Positions 3,842 to 11,172 of a stretch of 64,000 bases of DNA are shown in pieces; position 1 is the first letter of the stretch, and each line of letters opens with the position of its first letter. The stretch spans positions 256,001 to 320,000 of the forward strand of contig CBDDTI010000747.1 of assembly GCA_965233585.1 (NCBI GenBank), in the 5' to 3' direction. Source of the stretch: a bacterium (GTDB lineage Bacteria; SAR324; NAC60-12). The notes beneath the pieces are model-generated. The model did not search any database, was not told the origin of the DNA, and worked only from the letters and a program-made list of their open reading frames with translations. The translations under genes and the position numbers were made by a program.

Positions 3842-4091
3842 TTAGTTTTTTGCTGGGGTGCTATTGTGCCATAATTCATGTTCGCTGATGTCTATTTCCT
3901 CTCCCCACGATACTGCATAACCTCCCCTCAACTTTCACAGACTTGAATAAAACAGGGTTTTTTAATGGTTGAAACATTTCCAGTTTCAGCAAGGGCGTCA
4001 CGTCATATTTTTTAGTCTGCTGATTATCAAATTCAATTTTCAAAGTTCGCTTTCCGATTGCTTCAACCTTCTTGATTTTTGGACAATTCAT
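3842..4091 (-). pseudogene. DUF2442-family protein, frameshifted
   Basis: N-half 'IKKVEAIGKRTLKIEFDN..KKYDV..LL'. The expected C-half 'GGYAVSWGEEIDISEHELWHNS' is in another frame after the GAGGGGAGG run (~3921-3929) and ends at TAA 3842-3844. Confidence 0.75.
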
Positions 4092-5806
4092 AACCTAATT
4101 AAATTTTGTAAACGCAAAAATTTAAAAAACTCATCCAAAATTCGTTTGTTACGGTCAATGATTTCACTCTCTCCAAATTGAGGATAAGTTATGGAATTGG
4201 AGAGATTGGATATTTCATGGATTTGGCTTGCCCCCTTACTGTAAATTTCCTGCTTATCTTCAAATCTGTAATCCGATGCTTGAATATTTATACGGCGTTC
4301 AAGCAAAATTTTATTTCCCAATAACTCAAGATTGCTTTCTGCTTTTAGTCCTTTCTCTGACTTTTGACGTTTTTTAGAGTAGATATGCTCTAAATGAAAA
4401 TCTTCATTTAACTTAGGAAGTCCCTGATGTGGAAAGGTAAAAGCATACCAAGTTATTATCGAACGAGTCACAGGTTTTTGATTAGTGAAATCATAACTAT
4501 CAAAAGAAGGGCGGGCTTTGTTGACATCAAATTTGTACTTAGAAAATGTTACTTCAACACCGTTTACAATATTAACCATTTCGTCATATATGGGCGTTCG
4601 TAGTGCGTTAACTCCAGGATTGGTAATAGCATAAGCAAAAGTGAAGGCTGTTATTTTATTCAAAAATTGACAGAATTTTGAATTATCTAATGAGCCATCA
4701 GTATCTCTATTTTCTAAAAAATAGACGGATGTTATATTCTGCCACATACTGTTCGGTGAATAGTGCAGCACAAAAAGTTTCTTGAGAATACTATCACAAA
4801 ATCGGTTTTTATCTTGTACAGCTACACTCTCCCAAAATAAAGCGAGAGCCTTCAATTCATCAATTGTATGAGGCTGATTTAGATACCTATATTTATCTCG
4901 TTCGTAGAATTTTCTCAGGGCTTCTGTTGTTGATCTTTTATTACCTTCTTTTGCACGCAAATAGTACATGTAACGAGCAAATAACTCGTCCATCGGTGTA
5001 TTGTTCTGTTTGAATACTGACTTTGTTACTGCTTCTAACTCTTTCCAATCATTGATAAAATCATCTTTCTTATTTAAAGAATCATAGTACTTGTAGAATT
5101 GGGCTTTGAATATGTCCGCATCTGACAAAGGTAAACCACGATCATTGAGAGTTGAGAAAATACGAAGAGCCGTATCTTGTGATTCGGCTTCAATAGGAAG
5201 AAGAATACAGTTGCCTAGAATACGAGCAGGCAGATGGGCGGAGTAAGATGAAAAACATTGTAAAAAGTCATCAATCTTTTTCTGAAAAAATTGATAGTTT
5301 AGAACATATTGACTTTTACTTCCCTTTTTCACTTTCCCAGTACGAAGTAACTCAAGAAATTCTATTTTGTCATGGTCTGTCGCCACTGCAGAATCTATCT
5401 TGAGTATATCTTTATCGGCATTCTCAAATTCATCTACTTTCCAAATACACTTTTCAATACGAGTACGAATCTTTTGCGAGTTATCGTCCTGCATATTTGC
5501 AAACTTATCATAAAAAGCCCGTAAAATAAGCATGATTGTTGTGAGTCGCTGTTGACCATCAATCACCTCCGACTGACTATCTTCGTTTTTATAGGTGACG
5601 ATAGAGCCAAGGAAATACTCTTCATTTTTATCAAACGCTTCACAATTATCATTAGGAAATGAAAATGCAAAGATGTCATCCCACAGAGTTTGACATTGCT
5701 CTTCATCCCAAGCATAGGGTCGCTGATAGTCAGGTATAAGAAAGTCTGCTTTTTTATCTGATAAGAGATTTTCAATTGTTTTTTGATCTACATTTAGTTT
5801 TGACAT
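4088..5806 (-). CDS. GmrSD-type DUF262 + DUF1524 (HNH) modification-dependent restriction protein
   Basis: 'IPDYQRPYAW', 'YFLGSIV', 'IDGQQRLTT', 'IFSTLNDRGLPLS' (DUF262) and 'LEHIYS...LGNKILLERRIN' (DUF1524). Probable start MSKLN at 5806; the ORF extends to 5836. Confidence 0.9.
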   Translation of the reverse strand: MSKLNVDQKTIENLLSDKKADFLIPDYQRPYAWDEEQCQTLWDDIFAFSFPNDNCEAFDKNEEYFLGSIVTYKNEDSQSEVIDGQQRLTTIMLILRAFYDKFANMQDDNSQKIRTRIEKCIWKVDEFENADKDILKIDSAVATDHDKIEFLELLRTGKVKKGSKSQYVLNYQFFQKKIDDFLQCFSSYSAHLPARILGNCILLPIEAESQDTALRIFSTLNDRGLPLSDADIFKAQFYKYYDSLNKKDDFINDWKELEAVTKSVFKQNNTPMDELFARYMYYLRAKEGNKRSTTEALRKFYERDKYRYLNQPHTIDELKALALFWESVAVQDKNRFCDSILKKLFVLHYSPNSMWQNITSVYFLENRDTDGSLDNSKFCQFLNKITAFTFAYAITNPGVNALRTPIYDEMVNIVNGVEVTFSKYKFDVNKARPSFDSYDFTNQKPVTRSIITWYAFTFPHQGLPKLNEDFHLEHIYSKKRQKSEKGLKAESNLELLGNKILLERRINIQASDYRFEDKQEIYSKGASQIHEISNLSNSITYPQFGESEIIDRNKRILDEFFKFLRLQNLIRL

Positions 5807-5884
5807 TGTTTTTCCTTGTTTTTGAGAAGTTAACAATCAAAATGAATATCGGACTAAAACCAGTCCGTTGGATTTGTTAGGTTT

Positions 5885-6301
5885 TTATGATTCACTTTTA
5901 TCAATACTTCCATTCTTATTGTCTTTCATTCTGGACTCTTGGTAGTCTCCCCATGAAACTTCTTTAACTATGTTTTTGTAGGTTTTCTTAAAAACCTCAA
6001 ACACCTCAAGAACTTCATCATAGTCTTCTCTAATCATTTGTTCCAATTTGTTTTTATCCAATTCTGGACTTTGACAAAGAAAGTGTAAGTCCCTAATCTT
6101 TTTGTCTCTTGAAGACACGTCTGATGGGTATTTGATGTTATACAAGAACAATATAGCCAAGTATTCTGGGTCTACTAAATTCACTTCAACGCCTTCAACT
6201 TCCATCCTCCTAAAAGAATACCTCACAGCGTTCAATGCTTCATAAGAAGATGCGAACAAAAAGTCAATAGAATTTCCGCTTTTTTCATCCTCTATACTCA
6301 C
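5885..6301 (-). pseudogene. Probable C-terminal half of a nucleotidyltransferase (DUF6036/AbiEii-like)
   Basis: 'IDFLFA...VEGVEVNLVDPEYLAILFL...RDKKIRDL' resembles the C-terminal part of this superfamily. No N-terminal GG/DxD catalytic part is visible. Confidence 0.45.
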
Positions 6302-6569
6302 AATATATTTTTTTATTTTGATACTCCTTTACGACTAAAACCTGACGCTACATTCAAATTGTGAGCAAAGCTTTATCACTAAAGCAAGATACACACAACA
6401 CTCAATCTTGAAAAAGATGCTTTATTATGCTGCTTGATTCACAAAACATTGAAGTTTAGCAATCAACTCTTGAGCCTTTTGATTGTCTAATTGAAGGTTT
6501 TGTTTCTGATGGTTACTTTTCAATTTCCTCTTTCGTCCATTTTTGATTGTGTTTCATATTTTGGTTTAA

Positions 6570-6761
6570 TTAGATTTTATTTTGTTGAGTTGTTAAGTTT
6601 TTAAGAATTTTCTTTGCTAAATTCTCGTTAATTTCACGATGACGAGGCACAGGTTCAGAACTACCGGTATTTGGATTGTGATAAATGTCGTGCTTTGATC
6701 CATGCCGTAGCAAGACACAACCCGCTTGAGATAGCTTTTTTAAAAGCTCATGATGTTTCAT
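6570..6761 (-). CDS. hicA: HicA-family toxin
   Basis: 63 aa; 'ELLKKLSQAGCVLLRHGSKHDIY...PVPRHREINENLAKKILK'. Confidence 0.9.
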   Translation of the reverse strand: MKHHELLKKLSQAGCVLLRHGSKHDIYHNPNTGSSEPVPRHREINENLAKKILKNLTTQQNKI

Positions 6762-6952
6762 GCTATCTCAAGCTCTGCAACCCGCTTTATCCCCGGAATG
6801 TCTTCTTGAAATAAATCGTGTAGATCTGATAAATGTTCTTTCAAATCATTTAAGTCCTCACCCTGAGTCCAATGATCGGGAAATTCATTTAAATAGCCTA
6901 AATAAGTGCCATCAGGTTCTTTCCAATATGTAAACTGCTTTTTCGTCATCAT
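6758..6952 (-). CDS. hicB: HicB-like antitoxin (short, no DNA-binding domain)
   Basis: 'YLGYLNEFPDHWTQGEDLNDLKEHL'; ATGA overlap with hicA. Confidence 0.85.
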   Translation of the reverse strand: MMTKKQFTYWKEPDGTYLGYLNEFPDHWTQGEDLNDLKEHLSDLHDLFQEDIPGIKRVAELEIA

Positions 6953-7032
6953 TCTCCTCTGGATTTAAAAATAAAATACCCCAACCCCAACATCTGACTA
7001 ACGTGAGTCTGTTGAGCTTCCTCAAAAAATTT

Positions 7033-7278
7033 TTACAATTCACTTTCATCAATAGTTGCAATTTTCATAAGATGCTTTTGCAAACCTAGTTTAAACGATT
7101 GATTTTTATGCACAGGAACAGAAATGCAGGCATTGATTCCAGATTTGATACAAATATGGTGACTGCCATTGACCCGTTTTAACTCCCAACCTTTGTGTTC
7201 AGTAACCTTGCAAAAATCCTTACCACTTACAACTTCTGGTAAAAGCCAATCTGTTGGGTACTTTGCTAGGCGAATCAC
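7033..7278 (-). CDS. Second HicA-family toxin (orphan, with an atypical ~15-aa N-terminal extension)
   Basis: 'SGKDFCKV..HKGWELKRVNGSHHI...ISVPVHKNQSFKLGL'. Its GTG start overlaps the DUF2188 stop codon. Confidence 0.75.
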   Translation of the reverse strand: MIRLAKYPTDWLLPEVVSGKDFCKVTEHKGWELKRVNGSHHICIKSGINACISVPVHKNQSFKLGLQKHLMKIATIDESEL

Positions 7279-7501
7279 CCTTTAGGAGGGAATGGATCAT
7301 TGCCATGACTGTCTTTTTCGCTAATTTTTCCATTTTTATTATGGATGACCAACTCACTTTGTTGATTCTTGCTTATTTCACGGGCATGATTAATAGCCTC
7401 CTGTTTAGTGTCAAAATGACCTGATGATCGTTTTGAACCACTTTGCTTGATGTCCCAACCACTTTTTGGGAATTAGGTACCACATGTATTTGTTTTGCCA
7501 T
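7275..7501 (-). pseudogene. DUF2188-family protein, frameshifted (absent from the ORF track)
   Basis: MAKQIHVVPNSQK, then one base is missing in the A5 run, then SGWDIKQSGSKRSSGHFDTKQEAINHAREISKNQQSELVIHNKNGKISEKDSHGNDPFPPKG*. Confidence 0.8.
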
Positions 7502-7655
7502 ATTTAAAACCCTCTATTTGAATTAATAAAACTAACCATGGACAATGATTGTTGCCCAAAAATACTTTGGAATTTCTTTGTTTGAATTGTATGTTCCATA
7601 TGTCATTAACTATACCTTCCTAATTTAAGCGACAGGCAGGTTTGTTATACTCTCT

Positions 7656-8981
7656 TTAATTGCCTAGTATAAGTTTAAACATTACCTTCATACTATCATA
7701 TGGTCCCTTACTTTTGCCTACTTGATTAGGATTATAATTGTTATCCTTGATGTTATTGACAAGTAATTCAACACCTTTACTCAAGTTCTTTTCTATAAAA
7801 TCTAATGGATCAGACATTTTCCATTTTAATTTATCTCCTTCTACTTCCATCAGTTCAGACAAAGCCGCAAAAATAGGAATGATAAATCCTTCTGGATATT
7901 TAGCTCCACATTTTTTTTGATAATATTTTGTTAAAGGTGGTCTGCTTAGATAACTGGAACCTTTTTTGTTTTCGTCGTAAATTTTCACGCAATCCATTCG
8001 CCCGAACTTACCAAAATTATTGTTGTAAGCTTTAGGAAAATTTTCATAGATTATATCGTATAGTCTAGGTATCTCTCTAAGCAAAGACATTGCGGATAAA
8101 AATAATTTGTCATTTATTTTGCCTTCATTATCAGAGTACTTCTCAAAGAATAGAGAAAAAATCTCAACACACTTTGCTTTGGAACTATAAATTAAAACAG
8201 GATTAATATGAGGCAAGTTTTGGTCAAGTTTCTCTAAATTTTGTAATGCTAAGAGTGGTATTAAACTCATAGCAACAATATCCTCTCTTTTAATACGTTT
8301 TCCCGTACCATCTTTCCATTCTACATCTTCTACAATTTCTTCATCAAGTGCATTTTTTAGTATCTCATAATATCCTTTATGATCCGCTTTTGTTCCAGAG
8401 CTAAGAGGAGAATTGTTATTTCTAGCATCTGATATTTCAAATATTGCATCAGGGAATTGTACATTATATTCAGTTGTGGGATAAATGATCTCAATTGGCA
8501 TCTCAAATTCAAAAACATCTAAAACTTCTGATAAATTTTCTTTATTTTTATGCCATAGTTCTATGAAGGTATCCCAATTCTTGACTTTACTTAGCTGTTT
8601 GTTTGAATCTTCTCCAAAATATTCTTCTAAGATAAAAAGACCGACAGCAAGCATATTATGACCACCATCCAATACACCTTCATAACTTTCATCTTCAAAA
8701 GACAAGGTAAATCTCCCCCGTTCTCTTTGAATACAACTTGAAGAAGAAATTAACATGCCTTTGCTCTTAAACCTAAAGTCTTCTGGTGAAGTTTTTAGAG
8801 TCTCACAAATAGCAGTTGTGACCTTATTCTTTTTGGATTTTCTTGGGTTTGCAGTTAAACCTACAACATCTATGAGTTTTGCAAGGTTTTTGGCATTGAT
8901 TGTGGCTAAGACTTTGTTGATTCTAGCATGTTCTTGTATACAAAAACACTCAGTCTTAATTGTAACAGTTTGGTCTTTCAT
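7656..8981 (-). CDS. AIPR-like (abortive-infection-associated, ParB/DndB-like superfamily) protein
   Basis: 'ANPR...VTTAICETLKTSPEDFRFKSKGMLI', 'GVLDGGHN' and 'ISDARNNNS' parallel the AIPR motifs N(V/P)R / PE.F..NNGI / (N/D)G.(Q/H)T / I..A.N. Confidence 0.65.
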   Translation of the reverse strand: MKDQTVTIKTECFCIQEHARINKVLATINAKNLAKLIDVVGLTANPRKSKKNKVTTAICETLKTSPEDFRFKSKGMLISSSSCIQRERGRFTLSFEDESYEGVLDGGHNMLAVGLFILEEYFGEDSNKQLSKVKNWDTFIELWHKNKENLSEVLDVFEFEMPIEIIYPTTEYNVQFPDAIFEISDARNNNSPLSSGTKADHKGYYEILKNALDEEIVEDVEWKDGTGKRIKREDIVAMSLIPLLALQNLEKLDQNLPHINPVLIYSSKAKCVEIFSLFFEKYSDNEGKINDKLFLSAMSLLREIPRLYDIIYENFPKAYNNNFGKFGRMDCVKIYDENKKGSSYLSRPPLTKYYQKKCGAKYPEGFIIPIFAALSELMEVEGDKLKWKMSDPLDFIEKNLSKGVELLVNNIKDNNYNPNQVGKSKGPYDSMKVMFKLILGN

Positions 8982-9044
8982 AAAGAGTTCTCCTAATTAA
9001 ATTTAAATAAAACAACTATGGTGTGACCACAGCAAGCAATTTAA

Positions 9045-9161
9045 GAGAATCTGGCGAGGTACAAGCGGAACTTTTCAGCCTTATTTGGGATTTTGAAGTT
9101 TTTCAACTTCAAATTAGCTCTTTGGTCTTACCAGACCTCTCAGCCTTCTTTTCAGAAGACG
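9045..9161 (-). ncRNA. Candidate structured RNA or 5' leader of unknown class
   Basis: Starts just downstream of a sigma70 promoter. Hairpins GUCUUCU-GAAA-AGAAGGC, GGUCU-GGUA-AGACC and UUUGAAGUU-GAAA-AACUUCAAA; duplicated AAGGCUGA(G/A)A. Confidence 0.45.
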
Positions 9162-9167
9162 TTGAGG

Positions 9168-9196
9168 ATTATCCTACAACTCACTACTGTTGTCAA
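9168..9196 (-). promoter_or_regulatory. Sigma70-type promoter facing the defence island
   Basis: TTGACA (9191-9196), 17-nt spacer, GATAAT (9168-9173). Confidence 0.7.
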
Positions 9197-9300
9197 GAGA
9201 AATTTTTTCTCATACCTAACACCCCCAACATCTGGCAAGTGCCAGCTTGCTGGGTTGGTTTGTTGGAGAACTGAGGACGCTAACGAATTAAAGTTTGGAT

Positions 9301-9921
9301 TTAGCGGTTGGATTTTTTGATGGAGATGAGTCCGCCATTTTTACCGGGGACCGCACCTTTGACAAGAATTAAATGTTCTTGAGGTAGGATTTTGACAATT
9401 TTTAAGCCGAGCGTTGTTTGTTTGGAGTTTCCATAGCGTCCGGGCATCTTTTTACCTTTGAAGACACGTGAAGGCTGGGCGCATTGTCCAATACTTCCTG
9501 TCCCTCTGTGTCCTCTGTGTCCATGACTTGCAGGTTGTCCACCAAAGCCATGCCGTTTCATCACGCCTGAAAACCCACGACCTTTGGTTGTTCCTGTGAC
9601 CGCCACTTTGTCTCCTTCTGCAAAAAGACTGGTATCAAATACTTGTCCGACTTCAATAGCATGAGCATCTTCCACACGGAACTCTTTAAGAAAGCGGCAT
9701 AACTTTTGATCTTTGAAATGCCCTTTGAGTGCCTTGTTGACCTTGCGTTCTGCAATGTCTTCAAACCCCACTTGGACGCTTTCATAGCCTTCTTTTTCTG
9801 TGGTTTTACGTTGCACAACAGTCACAGGACCTGCTTGCAAAACAGTCACAGGAATCACTGTGCCATTTTCTTCAAAAATTTGTGTCATACCAATTTTACG
9901 ACCTAAAAGACCTTGTAACAT
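9301..9921 (-). CDS. rplC: 50S ribosomal protein L3
   Basis: 'GRKIGMTQIF..NG..IPVTV', 'GTTKGRGFSGVMKRHGFGG', 'RVFKGKKMPG', 'KGAVPG'. Confidence 0.98.
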   Translation of the reverse strand: MLQGLLGRKIGMTQIFEENGTVIPVTVLQAGPVTVVQRKTTEKEGYESVQVGFEDIAERKVNKALKGHFKDQKLCRFLKEFRVEDAHAIEVGQVFDTSLFAEGDKVAVTGTTKGRGFSGVMKRHGFGGQPASHGHRGHRGTGSIGQCAQPSRVFKGKKMPGRYGNSKQTTLGLKIVKILPQEHLILVKGAVPGKNGGLISIKKSNR

Positions 9922-10009: not shown

Positions 10010-11014
10010 TTACTGACTCATGGTGCGAGTCCAGTCTTTGACCCATTTTTTATTATGTTGAGCGATGTTTTGGTAATTGAGCATCAAACTTTTTTGGGGC
10101 ATGGGAGCAATGCGAAAAGATTCGGGCAGTTCAATTTGTTTTACAGCAGGGTACATCCAGTTGGTGGTAGGAATGACACTTTGAAATGGTTTAGTCAGCA
10201 TAAAGTCAATGAATTGCTGGGCTAATTTCTCGTTTTTTGTGCCTTTGATAATTCCTGCAAATTCAATTTGACGATACAAGCCTTGCTGAAATGACATCGC
10301 CTTGTAACGTTCTGTTTGTTCGTTTTCCAAGTGATACGCAGGGCTTGTCACATAGCTTAACACAATGGGTGCCTCACCTTTCTGAAACATTCCATAAGCA
10401 GAAGACCAGCCATCTGTGACCGTCAGTAAATTGGGAGCAAGCCGACTCCAGTAGTCAAGAAATCCATCTTGACCATACACTTGAATTGTCCAATGGAGCA
10501 AAGACAATCCCGGTGAAGAAGTCTTGGCACTTGGAATCACGATTTTTCCCTTGAATTTAGGGTCTGTTAACTCTTCCAAACTTTTGGGTGGTTCAGGTAA
10601 AGTTTGAGAATCATAGACAAAAGCAATGTATCCAAAGTCATAAGGGGTGATGCGATGTTGTTTGTCTAAAAGTAAATCTTGCCTTAATTTGCCTAAATGT
10701 TTGGACTGGTACGGCTGCCAAATTTGATGCTGAAACGACAATGCCAGCTGACTGTCACTAATTCCAAGCAAAATATCTGCTTTGGGCTTGTTCTTTTCTA
10801 AAATGACACGACTTAACACAGTGCCTGCATCACCGGGAGCAACCACTTTGACTTGACAATCGCATTCCTTTTCAAAATTTTTAAAGACCACAGGACCTGG
10901 TCCCCACTTTGAATTGAATGAATCATAAGTATAAACTACCAAACTTTGTGCAAAGATGGGGGTTGTGCTGATGAAAACAGAAATGCAGGATTTTAAGAAT
11001 TTTTTGAAAGACAT
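10010..11014 (-). CDS. thiB: Thiamine ABC transporter substrate-binding protein
   Basis: 'LVVYTYDSF..WGPGP..FEKEC.C', 'TSSPGL..L.W', 'LSYVTSPAYH', 'IPTTNWMYP'; preceded by a TPP riboswitch. Probable start MSFKK at 11014. Confidence 0.93.
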   Translation of the reverse strand: MSFKKFLKSCISVFISTTPIFAQSLVVYTYDSFNSKWGPGPVVFKNFEKECDCQVKVVAPGDAGTVLSRVILEKNKPKADILLGISDSQLALSFQHQIWQPYQSKHLGKLRQDLLLDKQHRITPYDFGYIAFVYDSQTLPEPPKSLEELTDPKFKGKIVIPSAKTSSPGLSLLHWTIQVYGQDGFLDYWSRLAPNLLTVTDGWSSAYGMFQKGEAPIVLSYVTSPAYHLENEQTERYKAMSFQQGLYRQIEFAGIIKGTKNEKLAQQFIDFMLTKPFQSVIPTTNWMYPAVKQIELPESFRIAPMPQKSLMLNYQNIAQHNKKWVKDWTRTMSQ

Positions 11015-11070
11015 AATTTCTCCTTTTGAAATAAAAAATGACTTCAAAAAATGAGGGGAGGAGAGGCGTC

Positions 11071-11150
11071 AACATTTCCCTTCGCTGGTATGATCCAGAT
11101 CAGGTTCTAAGGGTATCATCTCAGGTGCCATCAGCACCACCCCCAACGTT
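11071..11150 (-). ncRNA. TPP riboswitch (THI element)
   Basis: Minus strand reads GGGGGTGGTGC...GCACCTGAGATGATACCCTTAGAACCTGATCTGGATCATACCAGCGAAGGGAA, the canonical TPP aptamer, upstream of thiB. Confidence 0.95.
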
Positions 11151-11172
11151 TTTTGAAGAAGTGAAGGAAGTC

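Follow-up and report, generated by a model that had tools for sequence, protein, structure and literature searches.

A conserved structured RNA leader, apparently undescribed, accompanies a short AIPR-family gene in a SAR324 bacterium

The DNA analysed here, referred to as the window, is a stretch of 64,000 nucleotides from a bacterium of the SAR324 lineage (GenBank assembly GCA_965233585.1, contig CBDDTI010000747.1, positions 256,001 to 320,000). On its minus strand, a gap of 320 nt separates the ribosomal protein gene rplC (9921-9301) from an open reading frame (ORF) of 441 amino acids (8981-7656), and this gap holds an RNA element. Our comparisons suggest that the element is a real and conserved structured leader, apparently undescribed, which is dedicated to the downstream gene, a short member of the AIPR family. 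All coordinates of the locus are window coordinates and are read on the minus strand. Its features are the following.

9196-9168, minus strand: sigma-70-type promoter, TTGACA (9196-9191), 17 nt, GATAAT (9173-9168), 11 of 12 matches to the consensus
9160-9143, minus strand: hairpin H1, GUCUUCU-GAAA-AGAAGGC, 7 bp, GAAA loop closed by U-A (C-UGAAAA-G)
9151-9135 and 9086-9070, minus strand: duplicated (A)AGGCUGA(G/A)A box, 17-nt copies, 82% identical, spacing 65 nt
9142-9130, minus strand: Shine-Dalgarno (SD)-like UGAGAGGUCUGGU, 5' strand of the long-range helix P1', overlapping the 5' arm of H2
9137-9124, minus strand: hairpin H2, GGUCU-GGUA-AGACC, 5 bp, excludes P1' and is absent from the minimum free energy (MFE) structure
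9113-9092, minus strand: hairpin H3, 9 bp, GAAA loop, arms 100% complementary
9080-9069, minus strand: hairpin H4, GGC-UGAAAA-GUU, weak, coinciding with the second GGCUGA(G/A)A box
9055-9042, minus strand: distal strand GCCAGAUUCUCUUA, 3' strand of P1', kept in the homologous loci L045, L049 and L046
9033-9005, minus strand: terminator-like hairpin GCUGUGGU-CAC-ACCAUAGU (9033-9015) with UGUUUUAUUU, between the RNA and AGGAG
8994-8990, minus strand: SD sequence AGGAG of the AIPR-like gene, predicted unpaired probability 0.15 versus 0.33 with the upstream sequence shuffled
8981-7656, minus strand: AIPR-like gene, 441 amino acids, Pfam AIPR (PF10592) 33.9 bits versus a cut-off of 25

A sequence-only reading of this DNA had proposed the promoter, two hairpins with GAAA loops (H1 and H3), a third hairpin (H2), the duplicated GGCUGA(G/A)A motif and a GAGGU/ACCUC complementarity, and each of these was found as described. 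H1 begins seven bases past the GATAAT box, which corresponds to the 5' end of the transcript, whose +1 is predicted near 9161-9162. The proposed closing helix GAGCU/AGUUC was not recovered: the fold pairs GAGC with GCUU instead, and in the homologue L045 CAGAGA pairs with UUUCUG there. The dominant long-range pairing, overlooked in that reading, is the 13-bp helix P1' formed by UGAGAGGUCUGGU (9142-9130) and GCCAGAUUCUCUUA (9055-9042). It is present in the MFE structures of both the window RNA and L045, and in the predicted fold it encloses H3 and H4 and excludes H2. The 126-nt RNA gave an MFE of -37.9 kcal/mol, compared with -23.6 +/- 3.5 kcal/mol in 200 dinucleotide shuffles, none of which equalled it (z -4.1). 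Its loops are UGAAAA (three times), UGAGAG and UGGUAA, and none of them contains GGA. Tandem Repeats Finder reported no array between 9320 and 8900 at a minimum score of 30; the dispersed 17-nt box is the sole repeat. No second copy of the RNA was found in the bacterium's own genome, where the best other match comprised 23 nt. A leader peptide was rejected, as the RNA is without any ORF bearing a ribosome-binding site, and the plus-strand ORFs 9023-9274 and 9093-9320 were dismissed as mechanical ORFs with nothing supporting them.

The supposition that the element lies outside the known RNA families was upheld by the search of Rfam 15, in which no family matched the leader of the window or those of 20 relatives. 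At gathering thresholds the window gave only a thiamine pyrophosphate (TPP) riboswitch (11060-11154) and nothing at the leader; the region 8850-9400, searched at E <= 10, gave only two chance matches on the opposite strand, and at E <= 0.1 nothing was found on the leaders of the 20 homologous loci. Beside homologous loci, a serC leader was matched (L101, 895-946, minus strand, 67.5 bits), and a tRNA-Sec came close to its threshold (L078, 499-586, plus strand, 46.5 bits versus 47). In the literature we found no description of an RNA element with AIPR/AbiU genes, in a search that did not extend to most subscription journals or to the 2017 survey of 224 candidate RNAs.

Among species-representative genomes, the sole relative found was L045, a locus in a metagenome-assembled genome of the Gammaproteobacteria, whose protein is 69% identical to that of the window. 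Its promoter, TTGACA-17-GAAAAT, has the same layout. H1 reads GCUCCCU-GAAA-AGGGGGC, with the UGAGA box also present; H2 reads AGUCU-GGUUA-AGACU, the outer pair having changed from G-C to A-U relative to the window; H3 is rebuilt as AAAAGUU-GCAA-AACUUUU; and H4, GGGC-UGAAAA-GCCU, is followed by CCAGAUUUCUCUUAA. Within P1' of L045, an extra A on one strand is answered by an extra U opposite. The pairing of P1' was also recognised by eye in L049 and L046. A single blastn alignment joined L045 (1328-2796) with the window (9155-7677) at 74% identity over 1493 columns, and the RNA of L045 alone, used as query against the 64-kb window, gave 9155-9096 as the sole match at E<0.1 (E 1.3e-7). The sequence-only reading had let the RNA head an island. 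This did not hold: the homology to the gammaproteobacterial locus is confined to the RNA and the AIPR-like gene. Since its start lies in the RNA and its end about 20 nt short of the stop codon, only the AIPR-like gene belongs to the module.

Further homologous loci were fetched via alignment A1, which contains 40 homologues of the protein; they comprised the best 80 of 474 confirmed metagenome candidates, 12 viral loci and two plasmid loci, from Roseomonas mucosa (Alphaproteobacteria) and Subdoligranulum variabile. A covariance model, R1, was seeded with the window RNA and L045, its structure comprising H1, the long helix, H3 and H4. Applied to the window and 76 loci, 311,589 nt in all, it detected L049, which was not in the seed, with 53.2 bits (E 6.7e-8). 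The next eight matches (L054, L046, L057, L050, L069, L053, L048 and L058; E 0.015 to 1.9) were each situated directly ahead of an AIPR-like gene, on its sense strand, and the first off-target match followed at E 2.8. From the eight leaders with an R1 E-value of at most 0.3 we made alignment A5, in which 92.6% of the cells were paired (71.5 +/- 2.1% in shuffles, 38-57% with slid partners; 98% in H1 and 87% in the long helix), though these pairing figures are inflated because the alignment was fitted to the model, a point that counts against our interpretation. Changes on both sides were seen in 21 of 30 pairs, the shuffled mean being 10.3 and none of 500 shuffles reaching 21. They were distributed over all helices: six of seven pairs in H1, seven of 13 in the long helix, six of the seven modelled pairs in H3 and two of three in H4. 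The RNA thus precedes homologous genes in other organisms and carries compensatory changes there, which supported its proposed tie to the AIPR-like gene. The neighbouring genes differ among the window, L045 and the Roseomonas plasmid. Judged by these comparisons, promoter, RNA and AIPR-family gene form a mobile module, and the RNA, ~120 nt long and with several hairpins, is the 5' leader of this self-contained, horizontally mobile defence unit, which brings a strong promoter of its own.

The proximity to rplC had suggested to the sequence-only reading that the element might be a stranded ribosomal-operon leader. Indeed, the RNA lies 105-260 nt downstream of rplC, and the N-terminal domain of the protein is ParB-like, which would suit either a leftover ribosomal-protein leader or the rplC terminator region, or else a DNA operator palindrome for a ParB-like protein. 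The genome, however, has one rplC and carries the cluster tuf-rpsJ-rplD-rplW-rplB-rpsS, without rplC, on another contig (L003, contig C295), and in none of 29 relatives belonging to the same family and order do rpsJ or rplD occur within 1.5 kb of rplC. The isolation of rplC suggests that the S10 operon has been broken up throughout the lineage. Moreover, the sequences downstream of rplC in the 29 relatives are unrelated to that of the window, and the 301-nt region, compared with the DNA of 60 relatives, gave only one 46-nt match (E 8.7e-4). Because the lone rplC is old and both the downstream regions and the relatives are without the RNA, the RNA is not part of rplC, and its position next to this gene is, on this comparison, coincidental; it travels with the AIPR-like gene into other phyla instead. 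A DNA operator was rejected because the stems vary, the loops are conserved and G-U pairs occur, the reverse of what an operator would display. As far as sequence comparison goes, leader and operator are refuted, and we regard this whole group of explanations as scarcely credible. Three of the relatives (L017, L020 and L021) possess a conserved stretch past the rplC terminator, in the first ~120 nt after the stop codon. It consists of CTAAAGTTT..., then CCGATAA(G/C)G(A/T)AC, then GGATT(G/A)CTTTC, and lies ahead of an ORF of ~140-150 amino acids. This stretch may be another leader; it is unrelated to the window RNA.

For the wider family, the partial viral matches L135-L137 were excluded, which left 91 sequences (90 loci and the window). 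Five with less than 200 nt upstream were dropped and 11 were identical to a kept one in the last 200 nt, giving 75 non-identical loci. Within their 260-nt upstream regions we counted hairpins of at least 4 bp presenting a Y-GNNN-R loop. The sense strand contained 2.59 of them per locus, compared with 0.57 on the reverse strand, 0.74 in dinucleotide shuffles and 0.65 in coding sequence, and 61 of the 75 loci had at least two. The commonest loops were UGGAUA (42), CGGAUG (35) and UGAAAA (18), and the next pair outside the loop was mostly C-G (CUGGAUAG 23, CCGGAUGG 21, CUGAAAAG 9). UGAAAA loops mark the clade of the window, UGGAUA or CGGAUG most other clades. In 23 of 71 loci, a promoter-like site ended 0-20 nt ahead of the first hairpin (5-10 nt in 22 of them), 3.7 such loci being expected from shuffles; therefore, the RNA probably starts with this hairpin.

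Twenty 5' cores of the GGAU type were aligned by MAFFT, blind to structure (alignment A6). All 12 pairs of the two loop hairpins showed changes on both sides; 92.5% of the cells were paired versus 76.0% in shuffles, and the covariation score was 0.67 versus 0.33, a value reached by none of 500 shuffles. A second model, R2, built from these cores, returned 38 consecutive matches on the sense strand upstream of the genes in 37 loci, 17 of which were not in the seed, before the first off-target match at E 1.6. The number and order of the hairpins vary between clades. A third leader type, not captured by R1 and only weakly by R2, was observed in the soil metagenome loci L071-L088. About 200 nt upstream of the gene, an additional 5' hairpin, GCUCC-GGUUA-GGAGC, is present, whose 3' arm AGGAGUC mimics the ribosome-binding site. 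This type also contains GUCGGCUGG and CCGACUCCUU, both nearly invariant, and a further hairpin directly before the ribosome-binding site. Taken together, these comparisons indicate that the leaders are a widespread uncatalogued family accompanying the AIPR-like gene family. Their common plan has three elements: a hairpin at the very 5' terminus of the transcript, a set of two to five hairpins whose stems vary but whose C-Y-GNNN-R-G loop is conserved, and a strand rich in pyrimidines that could sequester the ribosome-binding site.

Loops that stay conserved while their stems vary freely have the look of sites recognised by a sequence-specific binder, and two kinds of binder other than the effector itself have to be considered. 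CsrA/Rsm targets and sponge RNAs have several hairpins with GGA loops and GGA at the ribosome-binding site. Most members of the family resemble them in this respect (UGGAUA 42, CGGAUG 35), the ribosome-binding site is AGGAG, and the bacterium's own genome encodes a CsrA homologue (contig C746:77970-78125, L140, 85.5 bits), so a host regulator of the CsrA/Rsm type might bind the GGA of hairpin loops and of the ribosome-binding site. The loops of the window, however, are without GGA, the loop type follows the clade of the gene and not the host, and no CsrB/Rsm family of Rfam matched. Furthermore, the module occurs on a Roseomonas plasmid, whereas CsrA was found in only three of 14 control genomes and not in Caulobacter, the alphaproteobacterium among them. 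We consider control by CsrA very unlikely.

The hairpins could also mimic phage RNA sites, for instance the boxB-like GNRA-type loops recognised by N-type antiterminators or hairpins of late-gene leaders. A phage regulator would then either open the switch or allow readthrough at the terminator, and thereby turn the abortive-infection effector on. The C-U-GAAA-A-G hairpins resemble lambda boxB (a stem ending C-U, GAAAA, A-G), and UCUCUUAA has CUCUUA in common with boxA. In both the window and L045 the hairpins are followed by a terminator. There is also a precedent for a phage factor, since a phage protein activates translation of the abiD1 message, according to the available portion of the report (PMC2661086). 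On the other hand, the comparison with nut sites showed that the hairpins of the window are tetraloops closed by U-A, with four loop nucleotides instead of five, albeit with the terminator present, and that in most of the family the loops are GGAU and a terminator is missing. In phage P22 the genes abut, and its scaffold gene is not preceded by a leader. Scans of viral contigs with two degenerate RNA patterns yielded 15 and 11 matches, of which only L145 was real, being identical with the known AIPR contig L128; the others were rejected as chance matches (at most 20.7 bits with R2, or E 0.88 or worse with R1), and thus these scans revealed no such leader before any other gene. We regard a sensor of phage factors as improbable. 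The same applies to its extension, in which the leader would be a molecular decoy whose hairpins copy RNA sites of phage gene control, boxB-like GNRA loops in the clade of the window for example, and through which a phage RNA-binding regulator licenses translation of the effector; we give this decoy little credence.

The complementarities downstream of the hairpins point to control at the ribosome-binding site. Within the distal strand, UUCUCUUAA is complementary to the ribosome-binding region UUAGGAGAA and thus a possible anti-SD, while the full distal strand CCAGAUUCUCUUAA pairs with the SD-like UGAGAGGUCUGGU in the window. Duplex energies were scored against 40 shuffles and called strong if better than at least 38 of the 40, which is expected for about 5.6 of 77 loci. 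In the window, the duplex of the distal strand with its SD-like partner reached -14.9 versus -8.6 kcal/mol in shuffles (one of 40 matching it), and that with the SD region -9.5 versus -7.6 kcal/mol (three of 40). A strong anti-SD was present in 25 of 77 loci. We also compared the accessibility of the SD with that obtained after eight shuffles of the upstream sequence. Over the 77 loci the mean unpaired probability was 0.298 versus 0.379, and it was lowered in 55 of 77 (Wilcoxon p 4e-4, a value that is too favourable because the loci are related).

On these grounds we propose that the leader is a cis-acting switch of translation, in the window also of termination, governing the output of the AIPR-like effector within the mobile promoter-RNA-gene module, which we think is probably correct, if not by a wide measure. 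Pairing of the distal strand CCAGAUUCUCUUAA with the SD-like UGAGAGGUCUGGU would form P1', dissolve H2 and leave the ribosome-binding site free, whereas its pairing with the true UUAGGAGAA would block the ribosome-binding site. H2 and the long helix would thus be alternatives, and the distal strand would decide whether the ribosome-binding site is open. In the window, the weak terminator may act as a second brake on expression. The switch would in this way set the amount of a potentially harmful effector that is made. A loop-binding factor would stabilise the all-hairpin form and set the balance. Because the module seems to be without a second conserved gene, the AIPR-like protein itself is the simplest candidate, and by analogy with AbiF/RCd22 it may be the loop-binding factor, exerting negative feedback or antitoxin-like buffering.

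Terminator-like sites were detected in 12 of 77 leaders, compared with three on the reverse strand and 4.2 expected, and are therefore accessories of some clades, that of the window included. L045 has a terminator at the equivalent position with a different sequence. In the clade of L139, L131, L118, L119 and L124 (the Subdoligranulum plasmid, gut or viral contigs), GGUUCUGGAAA pairs with UUUCCAGAGCC across a strong terminator; the output in this clade may be termination rather than SD masking.

The terminators also bear on the view that the element is a small antitoxin RNA resembling those of type III toxin-antitoxin (TA) systems. Most transcripts would stop at 9033-9005, and an abundant RNA of ~150 nt would neutralise the AIPR-like protein in trans until a transcription shut-off induced by phage causes the labile RNA to be lost and the effector to be released. 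Promoter, RNA, terminator and gene follow in this order in the window and in L045, and the repeated loop motifs could bind several protomers. Precedents are provided by ToxIN-type systems, as described in the accessible part of PMC5086642, and by RCd22-AbiF, for which the available text of PMC12373285 gives action in cis and in trans. But 65 of the family's 77 leaders have no terminator-like site, L049 and L046, which belong to the window's own type, among them; tandem repeats were not found; no ToxN/AbiQ-like or other RNase fold occurred among the matches of the protein; and the conserved anti-SD/SD complementarity is better explained by control in cis. We therefore judge the antitoxin to be unlikely, if somewhat less so than the phage sensor. 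The sequence-only reading had called the element a regulatory leader or an antitoxin RNA, which was the right kind of reading.

The junction closed by the 13-bp helix could, alternatively, be the aptamer of a small-molecule riboswitch, for example one recognising a nucleotide infection signal. This would agree with the multi-branch domain and the covarying long-range closing helix, which lies beside a platform with terminator and SD sequestration. However, no conserved nucleotides were seen in the junction or in internal loops, conservation residing in the hairpin loops and the SD-like strands; hairpin number and order vary between clades, unlike in an aptamer; and no known riboswitch class of Rfam matched. 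A riboswitch is thus a highly improbable explanation.

The AIPR-like protein belongs to a family with at least 620 homologues of 424-466 amino acids. Its match to Pfam AIPR is weak, with only residues 44-108 aligned; of 40 relatives, 27 matched this family at E <= 0.01. The motifs LDGGHN, situated in the N-terminal domain, and ARNNN are invariant across the 40 sequences of A1. An AlphaFold2 model was obtained with a predicted local distance difference test score (pLDDT) of 93.1 and a predicted template modelling score (pTM) of 0.84. Searches with this model by Foldseek against the PDB revealed nothing at E <= 0.001, a sequence profile search of the PDB yielded no match, and neither did PADLOC or NCBIfam. 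VIA-align of residues 15-192 gave PadC (Z 6.1), SspE (Z 5.7), ParB-N (Z 4.7), sulfiredoxin (Z 4.6), KorB (Z 4.5) and BrxU (Z 3.9); the top rows all belong to the ParB/sulfiredoxin (Srx) fold, at middling scores. The C-terminal helical domain had no structural match above Z 3.6 in VIA-align, and no RNase or ToxN/AbiQ-like fold was present among the structural matches of Foldseek and VIA-align, where the C-terminal half remained without a match above that score. No phage record was matched by tblastn of the protein. DndB's N-terminal domain has been linked to the AbiU1/AIPR family in the available part of PMC3506569. AbiU is reported to delay phage transcription and to resemble a nuclease, and an RNA partner is not mentioned in the available part of the lactococcal review concerned (PMC13064643).

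Several points weigh against a cis-acting switch with the AIPR-like protein as its factor. The SD-like third strand was strong in only 11 of 77 loci, about 5.6 being expected. The effect on predicted SD accessibility is modest, and in L118, L119, L124, L131 and L139 the SD was predicted to be more accessible than in shuffles. In its MFE structure the window RNA takes the 'on' form, which makes the default state uncertain. Only three rows of A5, the window, L045 and L049, are confidently homologous over their whole length. R2 misses the window RNA at E <= 10, so what unites the family is the architecture and the gene that its members have in common, not a single alignment. Transcript start, RNA end and the switch itself are predictions; a look for expression data turned up no RNA run of the bacterium, only four runs of unstated kind, stored as contigs and all from one study, in which the stretch occurs. 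Binding of RNA by the AIPR-like protein is putative, and the only recognisable fold of its model is ParB/Srx-like, known for work on nucleoside triphosphates and DNA.

Around the module, the 5 kb downstream (~4000-9000) have a G+C content of 0.31-0.38 compared with about 0.42 in the flanks. This stretch holds a GmrSD enzyme and two HicA-like ORFs besides the AIPR-like gene. The GmrSD-type enzyme (4088-5836, minus strand) matched Pfam GmrSD_N with 144.7 bits and, in PADLOC, HEC-06 best; it has the ParB-like N-terminal domain in common with the AIPR-like protein. The HicA-like ORFs are situated at 7033-7278 and 6570-6761 (minus strand), and two further minus-strand ORFs, of 138 amino acids (5885-6301) and 64 amino acids (6758-6952), had no family match. 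On the other side, the TPP riboswitch (11060-11154, minus strand, 76.5 bits versus a gathering threshold of 54.3) lies directly upstream of a gene for a solute-binding protein (10010-11047), presumably an ordinary component of a thiamine transporter.

An abortive-infection gene paired with a dedicated RNA is a known kind of system; the architecture and the protein partner described here appear to be new. Leaders of ribosomal-protein operons, in which a protein binds to a structured leader on its own mRNA and thereby shuts the ribosome-binding site, are alike in concept, without homology to the window RNA. The closest parallel is the abiF motif with RCd22 of Clostridioides difficile. According to the available text of PMC12373285, this RNA immediately precedes a lone abortive-infection gene, has repeated conserved hairpin motifs, and both represses and neutralises AbiF by direct binding; negative regulation and protein binding, demonstrated there for RCd22, are proposed here. 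The protein is Abi_2/AbiD/F there and a short AIPR protein with a ParB/Srx-like fold here, and the RNAs differ in sequence and architecture, the arrangement of SD-like strand, anti-SD and SD in our leaders being known from sequence alone. With the type III TA systems ToxIN, CptIN and TenpIN, as far as the accessible part of PMC5086642 describes them, the window and L045 share the order promoter-RNA-terminator-effector and a role in abortive infection, but the window is without tandem direct repeats, its effector shows no ToxN-like endoribonuclease fold among its structural matches, and a terminator occurs in only 12 of the 77 leaders. AbiD1 of Lactococcus is likewise an abortive-infection gene held back at translation and released by a factor acting in trans (PMC2661086, available portion); its gene and leader are unrelated, and the activator there is a known phage protein.

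The pairing of RNA and gene is observed, and that the RNA governs the gene we infer. The leaders add an RNA family of some hundreds of members that is absent from Rfam, and, after the abiF motif, a second case in which an abortive-infection system of one gene comes with a dedicated RNA. To our knowledge, AIPR/AbiU-type genes are common in defence islands, and we know of no account of how they work or how they are restrained. The conserved structured leader would be a first regulatory handle for this family, and it fixes the extent of the mobile unit, which consists of promoter, RNA and gene. The loops conserved in these leaders, C-Y-GGAU-R-G and C-U-GAAA-A-G, are indicative of a putative sequence-specific RNA binder. 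If the leader should after all be a decoy, it would constitute an infection sensor at the RNA level, whose loop sequences would diversify with the phages sensed.

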